Shown: piece after piece, positions 1,071 through 44,282 of the stretch
Position numbering within the stretch: position 1 is the stretch's first letter
Layout: each line of letters opens with the position of its first letter
Origin: a virus
Taxonomy: Duplodnaviria > Caudoviricetes
Strand: one strand, 5' to 3'
Length of the DNA: 64,000 nt
IMG/VR virus record: IMGVR_UViG_3300021400_003144
Notes under the pieces: generated by a model
The model's database searches: none
Told to the model about the DNA's origin: nothing
The model's input: only the letters and a program-made list of their open reading frames with translations
Translations under genes and position numbers: made by a program

Positions 1071-1408
1071 AGTGAACCCTTGCAATAGGGATTGAATCTG
1101 TACCATACATTTCATTTACTTGCTCTATAGAGTGAACCCTTGCAATAGGGATTGAATTTTATAATAATGCTCTATGCATTCATTATAATTTAGTGAACCC
1201 TTACAATAGGGATTGAATTTATCACCGTTATCGTCGCTGTCGTAATCCTTGGAGTGAACCCTTGTAATAGGGATTGAATTGTTAGAAAACAAATTATTGA
1301 CTGTTAATTATTAAAAGTGAACCCTTGTAAATAGGGATTGGATTTATTTTCTAAGTTTTTAAATATGCTATTAGGTCTATAAGCGAATCCTTGTGATAGG
1401 GATTGAAT
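1071..1408 (+). CRISPR. orphan CRISPR array, 6 repeats / 5 spacers
   Basis: 27-nt repeat AGTGAACCCTTGCAATAGGGATTGAAT at 1071, 1131, 1192, 1253, 1316, 1382; unique spacers of 33-38 nt; CCCT/AGGG stem and ATTGAAT 3' end; repeats degenerate towards the 3' end. Confidence 0.9.
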
Positions 1409-1467
1409 AGAAAAGAACTTGAGTCTAACAGGGTATTAAAAACAATTAGTGAGGTACAAATTTAATT

Positions 1468-2235
1468 ATGCATTATAATGAGGTAGATTCAGAGAATACA
1501 GACATTCCAGAGTCTGTCAGGCAAGAAAGAAGAATACGAAAAGCAAATGAAGAAAGACCATTAAGACCTGAGGAAGTATCAGAAGCTTATGAAACTGGTA
1601 ATTTTAACAAGCTGGCTGATAGATATGAAGAGCTAGGGTATGCTAGTCTTGCAAAGCAATACAGGAACAAAAATAAAGAAGAAAGCAAAAAGAAAAGTAA
1701 TAAGCTACTAAAATTCTGTATATTATTCATAATTACATTTATAATTGCACTATTTTCAATTTATATGTATTCAGAATACAAGGTAAGTATTATAGAAATT
1801 GCAATAAGTTCATTGCTTATATCATTTGTATTATATATGTCATTTTTTTCTGAGCATGTACATATACTAATTATAATCAAGCATTGTCTTGTGTTTATTG
1901 GTTCAATACTTATTATTGGTTGCATTTTTATATCTGTTATAGCATGCTTTGTGGATATTAAAATACCTGTAAATAAGGTACAACAAGAATCAGTACAAGA
2001 GGTTACACAGGAGACAGAAGTAGAGACAGAGGCAGAACTATCAATATGGATAACTACTACACGTGTAAAAGTAAGGACTGAACCCAATGTAAATTGTACT
2101 GTACTTGGTGTATTAGATGCAGGTGTACAAGTAGATTATAAAGGAGATGCTAATGCAGATTGGATAATCATAAATTATAATGGACAAGAGGCTTATGTAG
2201 CTAAACAGTACATTGAAGTAGTAAAGGGTGATTAG
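1468..2235 (+). CDS. membrane protein with C-terminal bacterial SH3 (SH3b) domain
   Basis: Three TM segments then VKVRTEPN..VLGVL..G..V....DWIIINYNGQEAYVAKQYI SH3b pattern. Confidence 0.8.
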   Translation: MHYNEVDSENTDIPESVRQERRIRKANEERPLRPEEVSEAYETGNFNKLADRYEELGYASLAKQYRNKNKEESKKKSNKLLKFCILFIITFIIALFSIYMYSEYKVSIIEIAISSLLISFVLYMSFFSEHVHILIIIKHCLVFIGSILIIGCIFISVIACFVDIKIPVNKVQQESVQEVTQETEVETEAELSIWITTTRVKVRTEPNVNCTVLGVLDAGVQVDYKGDANADWIIINYNGQEAYVAKQYIEVVKGD

Positions 2236-2323
2236 AATAATACATGGGTATAGACATATCAAAAGAAAGAAGAGAAAATAAAAGATAATCAAATATTAAA
2301 AGCTTATTGGGGTATTTACAGGT

Positions 2324-2512
2324 ATGATTGAAACTGAGAATCATTTAAATGAAGAACATGACGAGATAATTGGTTTAGATTTATATAAAGTAGAGTTGTT
2401 ATATGAATAGGAGCATAACAAATATGCAGTTAAAAGGAATAAAGATTCTAAAGGAAACATAGTTGGATACAAAGATGAGAGAACCCTTGCAATAGGGATT
2501 GAATTTCTGTAA
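2324..2512 (+). pseudogene. gene remnant with in-frame TAG running into a CRISPR repeat
   Basis: ATG 2324, TAG 2408, frame continues with coding-like codons through the repeat at 2478 to TAA 2510. Confidence 0.4.
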
Positions 2513-2566
2513 GATATTTATAAATTTTTTCTAATGTTGAGTGAACCCTTGCAATAGGGATTGATA
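2478..2566 (+). CRISPR. mini-array (2 repeats, one 35-nt spacer) with the same repeat
   Basis: AGAGAACCCTTGCAATAGGGATTGAAT at 2478 and AGTGAACCCTTGCAATAGGGATTGA at 2540. Confidence 0.85.
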
Positions 2567-2590
2567 AAATAACAAATTTAAGGGGGGCAT

Positions 2591-3049
2591 ATGTTAAACA
2601 TAAAGGTTGTTGAAAATAAAAAGAACATTAAAAGTTTAGGACTAGACCTTATAGATGATTGTGAAGTAGGTTTTAAATATATAAATGGAATTTCAGAAAA
2701 ATCAAAAATTCTGATGAAGTTGATTGATAAAGCAGATTATGTAGATGATACAACTATTACTGACAGATTTGGAGATAAGACTTTTATAGATAATTTAAGT
2801 ACAGGATGTAAAACAGCGATATGCGTTGTAGAGTATCCAGATAAGTGGATAAATACAATGGAGTGTGGGTTAAATGCTTTAAATGCAATATTAACCACAT
2901 GTGATGAAGGTAATATAATACTACTTGATACAGGTTGGGATATTCCAAAGACATTTGGAAGTGAAATAACTGTCAGTATAAACGGAAAGATATTCAATAA
3001 AATATCTGACCTGAATGAATATATAAGGGATGGTGAATATGATGTTTAA
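2591..3049 (+). CDS. DUF4869-like protein (carries ABC-signature-like LSTGCK)
   Basis: IDKADYVD...DRFG...LSTGCKTAI...ECGLNA pattern recalled from DUF4869 proteins. Confidence 0.7.
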   Translation: MLNIKVVENKKNIKSLGLDLIDDCEVGFKYINGISEKSKILMKLIDKADYVDDTTITDRFGDKTFIDNLSTGCKTAICVVEYPDKWINTMECGLNALNAILTTCDEGNIILLDTGWDIPKTFGSEITVSINGKIFNKISDLNEYIRDGEYDV

Positions 3050-3428
3050 TGCAGGAAGAAAACTGTTTAACATAGTTATAAAGTTAAATCCAGGGATATA
3101 TACTTTTGATGATGAATCAGGTACCGGAAAAACTAGATTATACAAGGAGCTAAAAGATGATTCATCCTTATATAATAGAGTGCTAGCTGTAAATCCTTCT
3201 GATTTACGATTAGGTGTAGATGTAAATACACTGATAAAAAACGGGAAATATGAATTGATTGTGTTAGATAGATACGACAGGATGGATGGCATAGATAAGG
3301 ATATATTGATAAATGCCTCAAAGCATTCAATTATTCTGATAGATTGTAAAGACCCAAGTGATTGGGTATATGGAACCGATTTTTGCAGGATACAGATGCA
3401 TAGGAATGGGATAGAGGTTTATAAATGA
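3030..3428 (+). CDS. minimal P-loop (ABC-type) ATPase
   Basis: Walker A DESGTGKT, Walker B-like LIVLD, later IILID strand; real start probably 3039/3042. Confidence 0.7.
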   Translation: MVNMMFNAGRKLFNIVIKLNPGIYTFDDESGTGKTRLYKELKDDSSLYNRVLAVNPSDLRLGVDVNTLIKNGKYELIVLDRYDRMDGIDKDILINASKHSIILIDCKDPSDWVYGTDFCRIQMHRNGIEVYK

Positions 3429-4285
3429 TATATTTATTTGAAGATAAATACTCAGTTTTAACATCTCATTTTATTCATAAATCTTACAGTGATAAAACTA
3501 CAGTATCTTTTGATTTTGATGAATTGAGGCTTAAATCTAGAGGGGATACAGTATATTATACTTTGGTTAATGAGTTAATCAAACCAGAGTATAAAGATTT
3601 ACATAAGATAATATTCACATCTGGAAATTCTGAACTGATACCTTGTGCAAATGCAATACTAATTTCTAATGAGCTTAAGGATGAGGAGATAGCTATTTTC
3701 TTTGACCTTTCAATTAGGAATAAAGTTATTTATAAATTATATAGGGATATCACTGACTTATATAATAACAATAGTAAAAGAGTGGTACCAGTACCTATAA
3801 TATGTAGTGAGTATAATACTTTAAAAGCATTTGATAAACTTAAACTAAATAGCAAATACACTAAAGATTTGGAAACAGTACTAGAATTAGATATTTATTT
3901 TAAAACTCAACTATATGAAAAAGAGAAGGACAGAATAAAAACATTTGAAAAATTCTGTAAAAGAGTAGCTTACTATATAGAGTCTGAGCAAGCCACTGAT
4001 TCAGACAAATATAATTTTGAGATATTTTTCAGAAAAGGTGATATAGTACATGACAATATTTTCTGGTGCTGGGCAAAGAGATACCTAGAAAATTGGTATG
4101 TATTACCAGGTAGAATAAGCAATGTGATGTATAAAACTAAAGCAATAGACTTAGATTACATAAATAAGAATCATAAATTATTAGTTGAAAAATATAATGA
4201 AGCAACAATAAGATACTTGGAGTATTTAAAAGAATCTAAGCCAGAATTAGTTAATAACTATAGAGTAGTCACATCTATGATTTAA
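3425..4285 (+). CDS. putative TOPRIM-like nuclease (OLD/PARIS AriB-like)
   Basis: N-terminal IYLFED, SGNSEL loop, AIFFD strand and later CSEY motif; ATGA-coupled to the ATPase. Confidence 0.5.
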   Translation: MIYLFEDKYSVLTSHFIHKSYSDKTTVSFDFDELRLKSRGDTVYYTLVNELIKPEYKDLHKIIFTSGNSELIPCANAILISNELKDEEIAIFFDLSIRNKVIYKLYRDITDLYNNNSKRVVPVPIICSEYNTLKAFDKLKLNSKYTKDLETVLELDIYFKTQLYEKEKDRIKTFEKFCKRVAYYIESEQATDSDKYNFEIFFRKGDIVHDNIFWCWAKRYLENWYVLPGRISNVMYKTKAIDLDYINKNHKLLVEKYNEATIRYLEYLKESKPELVNNYRVVTSMI

Positions 4286-4291
4286 TATTGG

Positions 4292-4415
4292 TTAGAACCC
4301 TTGTAATGGGGATTGAATACTTAAATATTATTTTGTTGATACTTATTATCTAGAACTTATCTACTATAATAAAAACATAGATGATAAGTTAAAGAACCCT
4401 AGTTGGGGATTGTAT
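4292..4415 (+). CRISPR. degenerate mini-array (repeat, spacer-like region, eroded repeat)
   Basis: TTAGAACCCTTGTAATGGGGATTGAAT at 4292; AAAGAACCCTAGTTGGGGATTGTAT at 4391. Confidence 0.65.
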
Positions 4416-4431
4416 CAAAAAGATTAATAGT

Positions 4432-4470
4432 AAAACAGGGATGTTGGGGTCTAACAGCATCCCTGTTTTT
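4432..4470 (+). terminator. intrinsic terminator
   Basis: AAAACAGGGATG / CATCCCTGTTTT stem followed by T tract. Confidence 0.85.
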
Positions 4471-4503
4471 ATTTTTTAAATAAAAAATTTTAGATAATAA
4501 GTA

Positions 4504-4532
4504 TTGAAAAAACAAGATTTAGGTGATATAAT
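4504..4532 (+). promoter_or_regulatory. sigma-A type promoter
   Basis: TTGAAA-17 bp-TATAAT with TG extended -10. Confidence 0.75.
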
Positions 4533-4577
4533 ATATAAAGATTGTAAAGTATTGTGAAATAGATATAGGAGTTTAAT

Positions 4578-4910
4578 ATGCAGGAGTATTATTTTTATAC
4601 TCTCATCAAGAATGAGAACGGTGCTATTGTATTAGACGAAAAGTCAGTAATGCTAAAGGAAACAGATCATAGAATAACTGACCCTGACAAGAATTGTTTT
4701 CCTCATAGTTATAGATGGACAGTAGACAAGCTAATGTTAGGCGTTGTAGATACAGAATATCTTGAAGATAATTGTGTATGTAGCATTATTCTGGACGAGT
4801 GTAATAAGGATAGAGCAGCTTCTCTTATTAAGGAGTATCTTAATAAAGATATTGAGATGCTTCTTAGTCAAGTATTAACTTTAACTGAGTTAAAAGATGC
4901 TATAGATTAA
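4578..4910 (+). CDS. hypothetical protein
   Basis: ORF with AGGAG RBS downstream of promoter. Confidence 0.75.
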   Translation: MQEYYFYTLIKNENGAIVLDEKSVMLKETDHRITDPDKNCFPHSYRWTVDKLMLGVVDTEYLEDNCVCSIILDECNKDRAASLIKEYLNKDIEMLLSQVLTLTELKDAID

Positions 4911-4920
4911 GATTAGGAGT

Positions 4921-4959
4921 GGGATTTAATGTAAAGAACCCTTGTGATAGGGATTGAGT
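4921..4959 (+). repeat. solitary CRISPR repeat copy plus upstream half-repeat
   Basis: AAAGAACCCTTGTGATAGGGATTGAGT at 4933-4959; GGGATTTAAT at 4921-4930. Confidence 0.75.
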
Positions 4960-5034
4960 AAGAGATAGCTGAAGTTAATAATGAAGAAGATCTTGAGCTT
5001 CATGAGAAGTTCTGTAATGAAGGTAGTGTAGACA

Positions 5035-5814: not shown

Positions 5815-5850
5815 ATGCACTGCTATTAATATGATAGCAGTGCATTTTTT
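5815..5850 (+). terminator. intrinsic terminator
   Basis: ATGCACTGCTAT / ATAGCAGTGCAT stem + T tract. Confidence 0.85.
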
Positions 5851-28550: not shown

Positions 28551-29510
28551 ATGAAGAAAAAAATCTATGACGTAATTAAGGTAACAGTATTAAGCACAGC
28601 TATTTTTTCACTAGCTTCAATTTCAACAGTATTTGCAGGAACATGGAGACAGAACGAAAGTGGCTGGTGGTATGACAACGGAGATGGTACATTTCCTAAT
28701 AACACTTGGCAGTGGATAGATGGAAACAATGATGGAGTTGCTGAGTGTTACTATTTTTATGCTAATGGTTTAATGGCTGCTAACACAGTAACACCTGATG
28801 GTTACACAGTTAATACAGATGGAGCATGGACAGTAGACGGAAAGGTTCAGGCAAAGCATTTAAGTGGTCAGACACCAAGTTCAACAGGCTCAGCAAATGC
28901 AAATCATCAAAAGACATTGCAGGAACTCTATAATGAGAACTTTGCTAATGGAACCTTTATTGATTATAGCAATGGTGCAAGCACTGGTATCACTGGCTTA
29001 GGTGACTCTGACTCAAGTTCAAGTTCAAGTGATGTAGAAGTTAAGTCTCTTGAAGAGTATTCAGAGTCAGAGCTTTATAAGATGATTACAGGCTCTTATG
29101 ACTCTAAGACAGACCCTACAAAGGGATACAGTAATGATGAAGCTATAGACGCTGTAGTATATTTGGTAAACATTCTTAGAAGCAAGAAAGGTTTAAATGA
29201 AGTAGTAGCTGACAATACCCTCATGGAAGCAGCACAGGTGAGAGCAGAAGAGGCAACTGAGAAGTTTTCACATACAAGACCTGATGGAAGTGATTGCTTT
29301 ACAGCTCTTGATGAGGCCGGATGGCCTCAGGATACACACGCTGCTGAGAACTTAGCACAGGGTCAGAAAACTGCAATGCAAGTAATGAATGCTTGGTATC
29401 ACAGTAGTGGTCATAAGCATAACATGCTTCATGAAAAGAATGGTACAATAGGTGTTGGAATTACAGGAAGTGGCTATTCTACAACATGGTCACAGTTCTT
29501 CTCAGAATAA
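28551..29510 (+). CDS. secreted cell-wall-binding repeat + CAP (SCP) domain protein
   Basis: Signal peptide, GWWY/WQWIDGN..G..CYYF repeats, FSHTRPDG...ENLA...W..S.GH..NM. Confidence 0.88.
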   Translation: MKKKIYDVIKVTVLSTAIFSLASISTVFAGTWRQNESGWWYDNGDGTFPNNTWQWIDGNNDGVAECYYFYANGLMAANTVTPDGYTVNTDGAWTVDGKVQAKHLSGQTPSSTGSANANHQKTLQELYNENFANGTFIDYSNGASTGITGLGDSDSSSSSSDVEVKSLEEYSESELYKMITGSYDSKTDPTKGYSNDEAIDAVVYLVNILRSKKGLNEVVADNTLMEAAQVRAEEATEKFSHTRPDGSDCFTALDEAGWPQDTHAAENLAQGQKTAMQVMNAWYHSSGHKHNMLHEKNGTIGVGITGSGYSTTWSQFFSE

Positions 29511-29530
29511 CTTTTAAACTATAAGTTGGT

Positions 29531-29570
29531 TGACTGGTTCTGTTAATAGAACCAGTCATAATTTTTTTTT
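29531..29570 (+). terminator. intrinsic terminator
   Basis: TGACTGGTTCT / AGAACCAGTCA + T tract. Confidence 0.75.
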
Positions 29571-29589
29571 GAAAGGTAGTTTTAAGGTT

Positions 29590-30597
29590 ATGAGAAAATT
29601 AAGTTTAGCATTAAGTACAGTAATTCTTTCAGTAGTATCAATTTCAACAGCATTTGCAGGTTCTTGGAAACAGGACACATTAGGTTGGAAATACATTAAT
29701 GATGATGGTTCAGACTTAAAGAGTCAGTGGGCTTGGATAGATGGAAACAATGACGGTATAGCAGAGTCTTATTACTTCGATGAAAGAGGCTATATGGCTG
29801 CCAACAGGGATGTAGGTGGCTATTGGGTAAATGCAGATGGACAGTGGGTTGATATGTACGGAACTGTACAGACAAAGGTTGTAAATAACAATATGCCTAT
29901 TGCTCCTGTAACTCAGACAGGAAACACCAGTACAGGCAATATTTATGACAATATGTCAATTGCGGAATTGTGTAATGTTCTTAACAATCTTCAAATGGGA
30001 ACTCAGGAATGGTTTACAGTTAATGAAATATTAAACAATAAAATAAATACAGAAAAACAAAATAAAGCAACTGAATATGATAACATGGATTATGATGATT
30101 TAAAGCAGATAGTCACAGATTCATGCATGGCAGGCACTCCTAATCTTCAAGCTATGGAAGCTTTGTCAAGAGCTGATGCAGCAGGAAAATGGAAAACAAG
30201 TAAAAAGGGTATGGCAATGAATTACAATACTGATATTAATGAAATGAGAGAATACATTCTCGATAAAATCAATGAATATCGTGCAGAAAAGGGCAGAACC
30301 TTACTTGAGCTGGATGATGAGCTAACTGATTATGCTCAGACAAGAGCAGAAGAAGCTGATATAAAATTCAGTCATACAAGACCTGATGGCTCAAACTGTC
30401 TTGACGAACTTTGGGAGATGTATCCAAATCATATTATGAATGAAAACCTTGCAACAGCATTTGCTTACAAAGATGTAGCAAAATCATGGTATAACAGCAA
30501 AGGTCATAAGAAAAATATGCTTGATAGCAGAATTGATAGATGCGGTATCGGTATATATAACGATACTTTCGCTTTTATTGGTTTACAGGATAAATAA
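29590..30597 (+). CDS. secreted cell-wall-binding repeat + CAP domain protein (paralog of 28551)
   Basis: Same architecture; ATG at 29590 gives a proper signal peptide. Confidence 0.88.
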   Translation: MRKLSLALSTVILSVVSISTAFAGSWKQDTLGWKYINDDGSDLKSQWAWIDGNNDGIAESYYFDERGYMAANRDVGGYWVNADGQWVDMYGTVQTKVVNNNMPIAPVTQTGNTSTGNIYDNMSIAELCNVLNNLQMGTQEWFTVNEILNNKINTEKQNKATEYDNMDYDDLKQIVTDSCMAGTPNLQAMEALSRADAAGKWKTSKKGMAMNYNTDINEMREYILDKINEYRAEKGRTLLELDDELTDYAQTRAEEADIKFSHTRPDGSNCLDELWEMYPNHIMNENLATAFAYKDVAKSWYNSKGHKKNMLDSRIDRCGIGIYNDTFAFIGLQDK

Positions 30598-37186: not shown

Positions 37187-37342
37187 TACATTTAAAAGGC
37201 AATTATTAAATTACTATATATTTTGTTGAAAATTTAAGGATTATTGACTAAATATAGTATAAATGTACTTATATAGAGCCAATATATTGTGTATTGGTGT
37301 ATAAGTAAAATTTTCTAGATGAAAGTGAGGGAACAGATAAAA

Positions 37343-38647
37343 ATGTCGAATAGCAATAAGATTTCAGACGAACTTGAGTACAATTTACATGGATGTGTGG
37401 TTAAGAAAGATGGTACACTTGAACCTTTTGATATGCATAAGGTAATAGCAGCTATTAACAAGTCAGCAGACAGAGTTATGGTTCATTTTGATGATAATGA
37501 GCTTAACACATTTTGTAAGGAGGTTGCTGATAAAGTTAGAAAGCTATTCAAAACAAGTGATAACAAGGTCAAAATTAGTGACATGCATAAGATTGTTGAG
37601 AGTAGTCTTGAAAGCATAAATGATAATGTAGCTCAGAGTTATAGGGAGTACAGAAATTATAAGATAAACTTTGTTGGAATGATGGACAGAGTTTATAGAG
37701 AAGCTAATAACATCATGTATTTGGGAGATAGGAACAATGCAAATACAGATGCTACACTGGTAAGTACAAAGAGAAGCTTAACATATAGTGCCTTGAACAA
37801 GGAATTATATAAAAAGTTTTTCTTAAATGTTGATGAGCTTCAGGCAATTAATGACGGGTACATTTATATTCATGACATGAGTGCTAGGAGAGACACCTTT
37901 AACTGTTGCATTGCAGATATAGCCAGTATCCTTGATGGTGGATTTGAAATGGCAAATCAGTGGTACAATGAACCTAAGAGCTTGGATACAGCCTTTGATG
38001 TTATTGGTGACATTGTATTAAGTGCAGCTAGTCAGCAGTATGGTGGGTTTACAATTCCTGAGGTTGATAAGATACTTTGTAAGTATGCTAAGCTGTCTTA
38101 TAAAAAATATGAGGAAGAGTTTAAGGCTGATGGAAATAGACAGTTAGATAAGACAATAGCTGTTATGAAAGCATCTGGAGTTGATGATGATACAATTTCT
38201 GATGTTAGAGATAAGATGATTAAGAAGATAAACTCTGAAGCTAAAAAGAAAGCAACTGAGAAAGTTAGAAGATGCTTCCAGCAAGGTTTTCAGGGTTGGG
38301 AATATAAATTCAATACAGTAGGAAGCAGTAGAGGAGACTATCCATTTATAGCTTGTACATTTGGATTAGGAACAGATAAATTTGAACAGATGGCAAGCAT
38401 AGAAATGTGTAGGGTACGTGCTGGTGGTCAAGGTAAAGAAGGGTTTAAGAGATTGGTTCTGTTCCCTAAGCTGATATTCTTGTATGATAGCAAGCTGCAT
38501 GGTGAAGGCAAGAAGAACAGAGAAGTTTATTTAGAGGGTATCAAGTGTTCAAGTAAGGCTATGTATCCAGACTGGTTAAGTCTTGAACCTGGTAGTTATG
38601 TTGGAGACATGTATCAGAAATACGGAACTCCAATCAGTCCTATGGGT
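37343..38647 (+). CDS. nrdD: anaerobic (class III) ribonucleotide reductase, exon 1
   Basis: ATP cone, YIHD, FNCC, QQYGG, FPKL, ends ISPMG at the intron 5' splice site. Confidence 0.93.
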
Positions 38648-38955
38648 AAGTGTAAATGCAGCCCATGTAAAACGTTTCGAACTCTTGTAGCTTAAGAGGT
38701 GTGCATAATTTAAGTTATGTGCTAACGGATAGGTCTTAGACAAATCCTTGAGAGAGGTTGCGAAAGCTGAAGTTTAAGATGAGTTCCGTGCTAAGTTAAT
38801 CTATATATCATATAGATTATAAAGGTGTACAGACTAGCCGTGATGAGTGTAGCGGCGTAGGGGTGGGATAAGCTCCATCTCCAAGCGGAACGCCCTGTGA
38901 AGGTGTGGACGACCAGAGGGAACATATAGCCGGTGTGAATAGCGATATTCAGACG
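38648..38955 (+). ncRNA. group I self-splicing intron (IA-like, no ORF), 308 nt
   Basis: P1 AUGGGU/GCCCAU with U.G at the 5' site; terminal G 38955; P3 CGUUUCG/CGGAACG; P7 CAGACUA/UAGCCG; P7.1/P7.2 hairpins; removal restores ISPMG-CRAFL. Confidence 0.92.
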
Positions 38956-39921
38956 TGTAGAGCATTTCTTTCACCATATTACGAGCGTGGTGGATTCAAG
39001 CCAGCAGATGAGAATGATAAGCCAGTCTTTGTTGGTAGATTTAATTTAGGCGTAATTAGTTTAAATCTTCCTATGATTTTAGCTAAGTCACGTAGAGAAA
39101 ATAAGGATTTCTATAGTGTATTAGATTATTACCTTAATATGATTAAAGGTTTACTTAAGAGAACATATGATTACATTGGTGAAATGAAAGCATCAAATAA
39201 TCCTTTAATGTTCTGTCAAGGTGGAGCATATGGTGGACATCTTAATCCAGAAGATAAGATTAGACCACTTCTTAAGTATACAACAAGTACATTTGGATAT
39301 ACAGCATTAAATGAGCTTCAGGAATTATATAATGGAAAGAGCATTTATGAAGATGGTAAGTTTGCTCATGAAGTTCTTGAGTACATTAATGATTATATAG
39401 TTGAGAATAAAAAGAAAGATGGAATCAACTACGCAATATATGGAACTCCTGCTGAGAGTTTATGTGGTACTCAGGTTAAACAGTTCCGTTCTCAGTTTGG
39501 AATTGTTCCTAACGTATCTGATAGAGAGTATTTCACTAATAGTTTTCATTGTCATGTAACAGAGGATATAACTCCTACTCAGAAGCAGGATAGTGAAAAG
39601 AGGTTCTGGGATTTATCTAATGGTGGTAAAATTCAGTACGTTAGATACAGAAGTGATAAAAACCTTGAGGCTATAGATGCTTTAGTACAGAGAGCAATGA
39701 AACTTGGTTTCTATGAGGGTGTAAACTTTGATAAGGACTATTGTGAAGATTGTGGACATCAGGGTATAGATTTTGAGAATCATAAGTGTCCAATTTGTGG
39801 TTCAGAGAACATAGTTGAAGTGAACAGAGTTTGTGGATACCTTGGATACACAAAGGTTCATGGTAAGAGCAGAGTAAATGATGCTAAGTTAGCTGAAGAA
39901 GCTGATAGAGTAAGCATGTAA
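38956..39921 (+). CDS. nrdD: anaerobic ribonucleotide reductase, exon 2
   Basis: CRAFL, GRFNLGVISLNLP, TPAESL, NSFH, CEDC/CPIC, glycyl-radical RVCGYLG. Confidence 0.93.
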   Translation, partial: CRAFLSPYYERGGFKPADENDKPVFVGRFNLGVISLNLPMILAKSRRENKDFYSVLDYYLNMIKGLLKRTYDYIGEMKASNNPLMFCQGGAYGGHLNPEDKIRPLLKYTTSTFGYTALNELQELYNGKSIYEDGKFAHEVLEYINDYIVENKKKDGINYAIYGTPAESLCGTQVKQFRSQFGIVPNVSDREYFTNSFHCHVTEDITPTQKQDSEKRFWDLSNGGKIQYVRYRSDKNLEAIDALVQRAMKLGFYEGVNFDKDYCEDCGHQGIDFENHKCPICGSENIVEVNRVCGYLGYTKVHGKSRVNDAKLAEEADRVSM

Positions 39922-42962: not shown

Positions 42963-44282
42963 ATGAAGAAAGTATTGGGGATGTTAGTTTATACCACATT
43001 AGCATTAGGGGTACTAGGTGGTGTGTTAGGGTATAGTTATAGTAATAGGTTTCTGCCTGGAACTACAATTAATGGTACTGATGTATCTAATTTGGACTTA
43101 GATACAGCTAAAGATTTATCTAATAGAGAGTTCAGTAACAGTTATTATTTAAACATTAAGTTTATAGATAATGTATCAGAGAGAATTAATGGTTCAGATA
43201 TAGATTTGAGTTTAGACTTTAGTAATAATGAAGTAGTACCTCAAGGAATATTAAGTTACATTAATGGTAAAGCTCAAATGAATTTTGATGCAGGCTATAA
43301 ATATAATGAAGATAAGCTGAGAGAAAAGGTTAAATCATTAAAGGAATTTGATGAAGAACTGATGATAAAACCTGTAGATGCCTATATAGCTGATTATGAT
43401 GGTACAGATTATAAAATAGTTCCTGAAACAAAGGGAGATATGTTATATATTGATAAGGCTTGTGATAAAATAGTACAAGCTGTAGATAAACTTGATGAAG
43501 AAGTAAGTTTAATTGATTGTTATAAAGAGGCAGAAGTGAAACAGCAAGATTTAGTTGAGAACAGAGATAAATTGAATAATATGCTTAAAGCAAGCATAAC
43601 ATATACTTTTGATGATGGAAGTAAAGTCATTATAAATAAAGATAGAATAAATAATTGGTTGGATAAAGATACAGCTACTGTTAGAGAGGATAGGGTTAGG
43701 AAGTTCCTTGATACAATAAGAGACCAATATGATACACAGTATAAAAATCAGGCTTTTGTAACTACACGTGGTAGTTTAATAAGAGTGTCAGGTCCTTATG
43801 GATATGTTCTTACAAAAGATGATGAATGTGCTGAGTTAATTAAGAATATAAATGAGGGTGTAACAATAACAAGAGAGCCTATCTGGATAAGAAAAGGTAA
43901 TGACCTTATAAATAAAAGTTACATTGAGGTTAGTTTAAAGGAGCAACATGTTTGGATGTATGTTAATGGAGAGCTAGTTGTAGAAACAGATTGTGTTACT
44001 GGTACAGACAGTAGTGCAGATAGAAGAACAACTCCTGGAATATATCCTATAACATATAAACAATCTCCAGCTACATTAAAGGGTGCAGGATATAGTAGCG
44101 ATGTATCCTATTGGATGCCTTTTAATATGGGTCAGGGTTTGCATGATGCTACATGGAGGTCAAGTTTTGGTGGTAATATATACAAAACAAGTGGTTCACA
44201 TGGCTGTGTAAATTTGCCATTAGACAAAGCAAAAATAATTTATGAACATGCTTGGAAAGGGATGCCAGTAGTAGTTTATTAA
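42963..44282 (+). CDS. L,D-transpeptidase (YkuD) with peptidoglycan-binding domains
   Basis: N-terminal TM, F.PGT.ING.DVS, YIEVSL..QH, T.PG, YWMPF, GLHDA.WR, GSHGCVN. Confidence 0.92.
   Translation: MKKVLGMLVYTTLALGVLGGVLGYSYSNRFLPGTTINGTDVSNLDLDTAKDLSNREFSNSYYLNIKFIDNVSERINGSDIDLSLDFSNNEVVPQGILSYINGKAQMNFDAGYKYNEDKLREKVKSLKEFDEELMIKPVDAYIADYDGTDYKIVPETKGDMLYIDKACDKIVQAVDKLDEEVSLIDCYKEAEVKQQDLVENRDKLNNMLKASITYTFDDGSKVIINKDRINNWLDKDTATVREDRVRKFLDTIRDQYDTQYKNQAFVTTRGSLIRVSGPYGYVLTKDDECAELIKNINEGVTITREPIWIRKGNDLINKSYIEVSLKEQHVWMYVNGELVVETDCVTGTDSSADRRTTPGIYPITYKQSPATLKGAGYSSDVSYWMPFNMGQGLHDATWRSSFGGNIYKTSGSHGCVNLPLDKAKIIYEHAWKGMPVVVY

Follow-up and report, generated by a model that had tools for sequence, protein, structure and literature searches.

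CRISPR repeat blocks scattered through the operons of a large phage-like element that encodes a Cas6e-like protein

Huge phages can carry CRISPR-Cas systems that lack adaptation genes and whose arrays have six repeats at the median (Al-Shayeb et al. 2020; PMC7162821), and solitary repeat units in viruses are known to act as RNA anti-CRISPRs (Racrs; Koonin and Makarova 2024; PMC11656645). Regulatory mini-arrays, described mostly for type I and V-A DNA-binding effectors, control genes that lie within cas loci, either cas genes themselves or cargo (Shmakov et al. 2023; PMC10120712), and type IV-C complexes use CRISPR RNAs (crRNAs) from arrays elsewhere in the genome (PMC13676074). How an adaptation-less CRISPR system on a mobile element keeps and deploys its guides is poorly understood. 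Here we describe a locus that resembles each of these systems in part: positions 1071-4959 of a 64,000-nucleotide (nt) stretch of Caudoviricetes DNA (Duplodnaviria; IMG/VR record IMGVR_UViG_3300021400_003144), hereafter the window, in which a 27-nt hairpin repeat with the consensus AGTGAACCCTTGYAATAGGGATTGAAT forms an array and then recurs between genes.

A profile scan (nhmmer) of 100.6 kb of the contig that holds the window detected 45 copies of the repeat, all on the + strand and arranged in nine co-oriented blocks (A to I, a lower bound) over 35 kb. A five-gene cas operon encoding Cas10, Csm2, Csm3, Csm4 and a Cas6e-like protein lies among them (window -23496..-19129; negative positions are upstream of the window). 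We consider it reasonably likely that the four blocks inside the window, F to I, are the distal blocks of an element-owned, adaptation-less CRISPR repertoire that is transcribed by read-through and cut by the element's own Cas6e-like enzyme. Like the huge-phage systems of PMC7162821, this one has a large phage-like carrier, its own effector genes and compact arrays, with no cas1, cas2 or cas4 seen. Unlike the systems of that report, whose main text contains neither "type III" nor "Cas10", it combines a type III-like effector lacking the GGDD motif with a Cas6e-like protein, and its blocks, at least nine, lie within operons over 35 kb. It likewise resembles the viral mini-arrays and single repeat units of PMC11656645 in that a mobile element carries blocks of only one to three repeats, and in that one spacer (E1) is antisense to a gene family found on related elements. 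Known viral mini-arrays, however, copy a host repeat and borrow host Cas proteins, whereas the repeat described here matches no searched host genome and is accompanied by its own Cas6e-like protein and effector. Adaptation-less CRISPR on huge phages, viral mini-arrays and single repeat units are already known; the new features are how widely the blocks are scattered within operons, the occurrence of a Cas6e-like protein together with a cyclase-dead type III-like effector, and a unit that appears to be directed at a promoter.

Exact-protein look-ups placed the window at the end of scaffold_29 (282,865 bp) of ENA ERZ28612966, and identical DNA is present in Logan SRR873599 and NCBI GCA_001684375.1. 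An upstream walk of four steps (~36 kb, to window -36602) brought the contig covered to ~100 kb in all. We take the sample label, SHIW14-1_SAMN02144230, to point to a 2014 sheep-rumen study, which reportedly also yielded metatranscriptomes. No capsid or terminase gene was seen in the 100 kb examined.

The original prediction had described a six-repeat array at 1071-1408 followed by copies at 2478, 2540 and 4292, an eroded copy and one at 4933, and our scans recovered every one of them. A proposed half copy at 4921 proved indistinguishable from chance (nhmmer E=670), and the profile scan found no copies in window 5000-64000. With up to 3 mismatches allowed, a 26-nt consensus matched 6 times, against 0 in 100 shuffles, and a core-pattern search gave 9 matches against a shuffle mean of 0.48. 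Block F (1071..1408, + strand) consists of six 27-nt repeats that start at 1071, 1131, 1192, 1253, 1316/7 and 1382, with a period of 60-66 nt. Its five spacers, each 33-38 nt long, are unique. F1 has the same sequence as F2, while the 3' end has degenerated in F5, by a 1-nt insertion, and in F6, by 2 changes. With its direct repeats, regular spacing and unique spacers of like length, block F is a CRISPR array, whereas blocks H, with a 70-nt spacer, and I, with a single repeat, do not form regular arrays on their own.

The remaining copies are closely associated with genes, at the distances first proposed. The array of block F begins 27 nt past a stop codon at 1043. Block G (2478..2566, + strand) is a two-repeat mini-array with one 35-nt spacer and the TTGCAAT loop of F1 and F2, and its second repeat, which has an altered tail (ATTGATA), sits 24 nt before the ATG of the next operon (2591). 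Repeat H1 (4292..4318, + strand), 6 nt past the stop codon of that operon (4285), has a CCCT/GGGG stem with a G-U closing pair and the tail ATTGAAT; H2 (4389..4415, + strand) is degenerate, with a 4-nt loop, the tail ATTGTAT and an nhmmer E=0.66. The solitary repeat I1 (4933..4959, + strand) has the loop TTGTGAT, as in F6, and the tail ATTGAGT, and lies 22 nt past a stop codon and 75 nt ahead of the next ATG. F1-F4, G1 and G2 are near-perfect copies.

Upstream of the window, block A (window -29679..-28751) holds 16 repeats; block B (window -23963..-23620) holds 6 and ends 123 nt before cas10; block C (window -19085..-18698) holds 7 and starts 43 nt past the cas6e stop codon; block D (window -17947..-17796) holds 3; and block E (window -8091..-8009; positions 1466-1549 of fetched locus L001) holds 2, all on the + strand, compared with 6, 2, 2 and 1 for F, G, H and I. 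The operon is thus on the same replicon as all nine blocks and is flanked by two of them with the same repeat, as expected of cognate cas genes. Blocks start 6-75 nt past the upstream stop codon, except G at 242 nt, and end 6-162 nt ahead of the next start codon. They occupy ordinary tight intergenic slots of long same-strand operons and have no leaders: no promoter-like site is predicted directly upstream of F, G, H or I. The statement that the array has no leader or cas gene therefore stands for the leader and, as regards cas genes, inside the window only, the operon lying 19-23 kb upstream.

The predicted products of the operon combine type III-like and type I-E-like features. The Cas10/Csm1-like protein (625 aa; amino acids) has an N-terminal HD motif (TIGR02578 E=3.9e-19; PF01966 E=5.9e-8), Csm2 matches PF03750 (31.7 bits, cut-off 30.6), Csm3 scores 182 bits on TIGR02582 (cut-off 90), and Csm4 reaches 47 bits on TIGR01903, below the cut-off of 55. 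The last gene encodes a 208-aa protein that matches PF08798 (E=7e-15) and, at 34.8 bits, falls below the TIGR01907 cut-off of 45.2. His33 and the G-x-G...G-F-G glycine-rich loop of this protein are invariant in 18 relatives; by profile, catalytic His and C-terminal loop, it is predicted to be a Cas6e-like RNA endonuclease. The GGDD/GGDE motif is absent from Cas10 here and from its four fetched homologues, and the HD motif is kept in all five. These five proteins (L005:4157-6034, L007:6149-8011, L008:6272-8134, L028:5458-7347 and L029:6181-8118) also keep an LGNTTTSL(Y/F)DH block, and make up a cyclase-dead lineage on contigs of 12 to 283 kb with the gene order Cas10-Cas11-Cas7-Cas5-Cas6e. The genes called in the 100 kb include no csm5, csm6 or CARF gene.

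III-A systems typically have a GGDD cyclase motif in Cas10 and an ancillary effector of the CARF type; a GGDD-less Cas10 without a CARF effector would fit a III-F-like or IV-C-like reduction. As in III-F and type IV-C systems (PMC13676074), the order is Cas10-Cas11-Cas7-Cas5 and Cas10 has the HD motif and lacks GGDD. Unlike those systems, the operon encodes a clear Csm3 as its Cas7 (182 bits), has a Cas6e-like gene and arrays attached, and resides on a giant mobile carrier. At least four other metagenomic contigs likewise combine a type III-like effector that is cyclase-dead with a processing enzyme of the type I-E style. If processing at the repeats is real, the element would offer a compact RNA-processing and effector set for study.

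The CCC/GGG core of the repeat hairpin is nearly invariant over the 45 copies. At the fourth stem pair, 39 copies have T-A, 3 have C-G and 3 have T-G. The hairpin is able to form in 43-44 of the 45, solitary copies included. Variation was said to concentrate in the loop and to spare the CCCT/AGGG stem, and this holds: the stem changes are G-U intermediates plus one full compensatory change (CCCC/GGGG, in E1). All are G-U or compensatory on the + strand only, and G-U intermediates pair just in + strand RNA. Stems also covary in relatives, with CCCCG/CGGGG in L008, CCCCAC/GTGGGG and CCCTAC/GTAGGG in L007, and CTCT/AGAG in L028. The 3' tail, ATTGAAT, is similar to the usual 8-nt AUUGAAA-type crRNA tag.

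Exhaustive HMMER searches with the Cas6e-like protein returned ~20 relatives at 30-49% identity. Three of their contigs, L007 (187 kb), L008 (112 kb) and L028 (14.8 kb), carry this five-gene operon too, and behind it the 27-nt hairpin repeats form a single contiguous array, with the ATTGAAT tail in L008 and L028; a further contig, L029, ends just past cas6e. No scattered repeat copies occur within the DNA covered from L007, L008 and L028, and the genes flanking the operon in relatives are unrelated to those here. Because the arrays are contiguous in three distant relatives, the scatter is a derived state of this element.

We found no close relatives of the element in the collections searched. 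GenBank phages gave no nucleotide match for the region or for block F. In IMG/VR, an exact-pattern scan did not find the repeat, and no match was obtained for the Cas10-like protein, for a 286-aa protein encoded between G and H, or for the Cas6e-family alignment; word-index protein searches with the Cas6e-like, 286-aa and 670-aa proteins returned self or nothing. The original prediction had proposed searching host CRISPR loci for the repeat to identify its subtype. This search, two exact-pattern scans of 185,579 species genomes, gave no array, single chance copies only. A metagenome scan located the repeat in two further contigs. One is a 1.7-kb contig from another metagenome (L009; OCTW011347643.1), in which an array of at least five repeats (L009:1371-1706), with the near-identical repeat GAACCCTTGTAATAGGGATTGCAT, lies at the contig end after an unrelated 332-aa open reading frame (ORF). 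The other, ENA ERZ28612966 scaffold_118 (167,290 bp), comes from the same sample and has a two-repeat block with the identical repeat (L026:12303-12384, equivalent to L016:6085-6166), located 11 nt past the stop codon of a 72-aa gene. This gene is downstream of an Eco57I-like methyltransferase, and a terminator-like hairpin follows the block. The base composition of scaffold_118 is near-identical to that of scaffold_29, and it may be part of the same genome or be a sibling element.

The placement of the blocks has consequences for their expression: without leaders and inside operons, guides and mRNAs would be forced to share transcripts. Terminator/promoter pairs are predicted at about -30545/-30512 and at -23587/-23568, the latter directly after block B and before cas10. 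Further + strand terminators are predicted at -11405 and -10528 and the next at 4466, directly after block H, with none between -10528 and 4466 (~15 kb). This last one, the first predicted past ~-10.5 kb, is an intrinsic terminator-like hairpin (4432..4478, + strand) of 15 pairs with a T tract, in agreement with the earlier placement of the first + strand terminator at 4432 (4432-4469). Blocks B and H are each directly followed by a terminator, and past block H the order is terminator, a promoter at 4504 (P4504), a 110-aa gene, I1, the next gene and a terminator at 5845. From these consensus matches, blocks E to H probably share transcripts with neighboring genes. The only Rfam match was a sub-threshold one to rli40, on a terminator.

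P4504 (4489..4532, + strand; TTGAAA-17-TATAAT with TG) belongs to a family of strong, sigma-70-like promoters at window 4504, 6685, 11317, 18462, 28461 and 33659, and also at -23568 and -30512. Its members share the extended -35 sequence gtaTTGACAaaat, a 17-nt spacer and TATAAT, and the family is probably the element's own promoter class.

The 36 spacers of the nine blocks are all unique, and their base composition falls between sense and antisense (GC skew -0.01, versus +0.37 for the genome). Partial matches were obtained for two of them only: E1 matches paralogues of a methyltransferase (24-26/35), and H1 matches a promoter of the element itself (29/37). In Eco57I-like methyltransferases, the sequence to which spacer E1 is antisense encodes the C-terminal motif IFTD.ELY.KY, and the spacer matches two resident copies at 24/35 and 26/35; because it is imperfect on both paralogues, a third allele elsewhere is probably the target. 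When the 45 post-repeat segments were screened for + strand partners on the element, E1 and H1 alone scored above chance, barring a terminator palindrome after B6. The 30 nt past I1 (4960-4989) match + strand sequence at window -691..-662, in the 670-aa gene, at 24/30, against a shuffle maximum of 22; this similarity is borderline and probably due to chance.

A 36-nt guide-like segment (4319..4354, + strand) starts at the first base past the H1 tail, or tag, and a local hairpin (4354..4390, + strand) makes up the second half of the 70-nt H "spacer". The guide is complementary to + strand 4489-4524, that is, to the upstream and -35 part of P4504, with 29/37 Watson-Crick pairs, 5 more G-U pairs and a run of 14 consecutive pairs, a level reached by 0/200 shuffles. 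Its complementarity to other members of the promoter family is far poorer (22-23/36). The RNA of 4286-4540 is predicted to fold (z=-7.2) into a long helix, an inner hairpin, H2 and the terminator. A reading of the inverted repeat 4318-4354 / 4489-4525 as similar to a miniature inverted-repeat transposable element was set aside because the right arm belongs to the element's promoter family.

Block H has an intact proximal repeat, a degenerate distal one and a spacer that is complementary in part to a promoter close by, and in this it resembles the regulatory mini-arrays (cr-like RNAs) described in PMC10120712. In contrast to the cases in that report, the effector here is type III-like, and the target would be the promoter of a gene that is unrelated to the operon and 24 kb away from it. 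The same authors found no targets for type III mini-arrays, and in the literature cited here a promoter-aimed mini-array is without report for type III-like systems.

We propose that the blocks are transcribed by read-through along with the adjoining genes, and that the Cas6e-like enzyme would cleave at the 3' base of each CCCT/AGGG hairpin, leaving a 7-8 nt AUUGAAU-type 5' tag. Such cleavage would supply the Csm-like complex with guide RNAs and would incidentally cut the polycistronic mRNA at gene borders. The guides might be used against related elements in conflict, and one or more may have a regulatory role: that of H1 would pair in part with the adjoining promoter region or with read-through RNA across it. 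Of the options originally put forward, a shared transcript processed by Cas6 fits best, with the amendment that the enzyme would be the element's own Cas6e-like protein and not a host Cas6.

The scatter itself most likely came about through genes inserted into arrays, or through recombination at them, rather than through spacer adaptation. One repeat-variant match supports gene insertion: the C7 loop is TTTTAT, as in D1-D3 and unlike C1-C6, and a 708-nt gene lies between C7 and D1. That gene therefore lies within a homogeneous sub-array, which fits gene insertion into an array. G1 and G2 similarly share the TTGCAAT variant with F1 and F2; in a check on duplication of F to give G-I, the similarity between spacers F1 and G1 was not significant (rank 98/595). 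Other variants are specific to a block (GTTAT in B, TTTTAT in D), suggesting that the blocks have been separate for some time.

A number of observations weigh against an element-owned repertoire in use. Promoter and terminator calls come from consensus scans only. The F, G and H spacers have no outside target in GenBank phages or the fetched loci. Codon-based spacer orientation gives 22 antisense versus 14 sense with a classifier that is 70% accurate; this antisense bias is weak and appears loose for an RNA-targeting system. The absence of cas1 and cas2 holds for the genes called in 100 kb of the 282,865-bp contig, and either gene may lie elsewhere on it. Loops and tails are unusually heterogeneous, as expected of decaying arrays, and Shmakov et al. 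(PMC10120712) judged most mini-arrays near type III loci to be degraded remnants. The heterogeneity, this published view, the lack of outside targets and the absence of cas1 and cas2 from the 100 kb would also suit a neutral history in which only C, and perhaps B, is used and F-I are decaying leftovers broken by insertions and deletions, the solitary copies having no role; the eroded H2, the altered tails of G2 and I1 and the contiguous array of the relatives agree with it as well. We regard this history as unlikely, because the hairpin can form in nearly all copies and its changes are either G-U or compensatory, in each case on the + strand only. Moreover, each of the 45 copies is oriented with transcription, there is little or no change in F1-F4 and in G1 and G2, the identical repeat recurs in a two-repeat block on a second contig of the sample, and the match of the H1 guide to the neighboring promoter is far above chance. 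It is also rather doubtful, at about the same level, that the element wires CRISPR into its own expression, with Cas6e-type hairpins at gene borders dividing long same-strand transcripts into defined mRNAs as guides are released, and with H1 directing the GGDD-less, HD-bearing effector to P4504 or to read-through RNA. If this were true, H1 would be a self-regulatory switch or a terminator enforcer in a type III-like system.

Other explanations assign a role to the repeats themselves. Cas6-family enzymes remain bound to the 3' hairpin, and engineered Csy4 sites insulate genes in operons. Cas6e-like cleavage at G2, H1 and I1 might accordingly set mRNA ends, with the 3' hairpin and the 5'-OH altering stability and the expression of the flanked genes, and if processing at the repeats is real this would be a natural Cas6-dependent operon punctuation. 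The positions of H1 just past a stop codon, of G2 before an ATG with a ribosome-binding site between, and of I1 past a stop codon favor such a function, as does the ~15 kb free of predicted terminators. However, the genome-wide median intergenic gap is 32.5 nt, so the tightness of this spacing is that of any non-coding insert in a compact genome, and in relatives that share the cas family the DNA covered gives no sign of such a use; that the repeats beyond the main arrays now serve as mRNA punctuation is improbable. Exchange of cassettes at the repeats in the manner of integrons, or capture of genes as giant spacers, is very improbable. Genes are tightly bracketed by direct repeats at C7/D1 and G2/H1, and the repeat also occurs in another metagenome and on a further large contig of this sample, which would supply homology for exchange, but no integrase, recombinase, cas1 or cas2 is present among the called genes of the 100 kb, the 286-aa gene has no alternative context in any assembly searched, and the flanking repeats differ in variant at F6/G1, G2/H1 and H2/I1. 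The cassette proteins have no detectable relatives that would reveal movement. The proposal that the array had taken up kb-sized, gene-bearing spacers or traded cassettes thus survives as genes inserted in arrays, in line with the C7/D1-D3 variant, while kb-sized spacers acquired by adaptation are unsupported. Least probable of all, with hardly any weight in our assessment, is that the solitary repeats are Racrs that soak up Cas proteins of a host or rival element, the last option of the original prediction. H2 and I1 do lack a downstream partner, but no host array with the repeat is found in the 185,579 species genomes and no separate promoters are predicted for the solitary repeats. Moreover, repeats of this type accompany the Cas6e-like family to which the element's own protein belongs, so that such units would titrate its own system.

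Between F and G, a + strand gene (1468..2235) encodes a 255-aa membrane protein with a C-terminal bacterial SH3 domain (PF08239, E=1.6e-10), which bears out its initial SH3b assignment. The 242 nt from this gene to block G (2236-2477) contain no + strand ORF of at least 40 aa and no detectable ghost repeat. Between G and H, three overlapping genes (2591..4285, + strand) encode proteins of 152 aa (a weak DUF4869 match), 132 aa and 286 aa. These had been described as an ATPase/nuclease operon; a P-loop motif is visible by eye in the 132-aa protein, in partial agreement, and the nuclease is unsupported, with just the weak DUF4869 match. Relatives of the 286-aa protein went undetected in protein searches (IMG/VR, word-index search). 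Contig breaks near 2803-2825 in other assemblies were considered as alternative structures and proved to be plain overlaps. Between H and I, a + strand gene (4578..4910) encodes a 110-aa protein without a family match. For the cassette proteins, nothing usable was obtained from PADLOC, PHROGs, NCBIfam, PDB sequence search or the ESM Atlas.

Elsewhere on the element, a serpin gene lies between blocks A and B, and just past block D a 745-aa protein (L005:10001-12238, window -17652..-15415) combines AAA_33 kinase, metallophosphatase and T4 RNA-ligase domains of the RNA-repair type. An anaerobic ribonucleotide reductase, NrdD, is encoded in two ORFs (window 37319-38695 and 38905-39921) ~209 nt apart that match profile positions 6-393 (N-terminal half) and 392-711 (C-terminal half), an arrangement that might reflect an intron, the remnant of an intein or a gene that is truly split. 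In addition, tandem paralogues at window 28551-29510 and 29530-30597 have choline-binding repeats and a CAP (cysteine-rich secretory protein) domain, and an L,D-transpeptidase with peptidoglycan-binding domains is encoded at window 42963-44282. These proteins appear to be cell-wall-directed and hint at a Gram-positive host.

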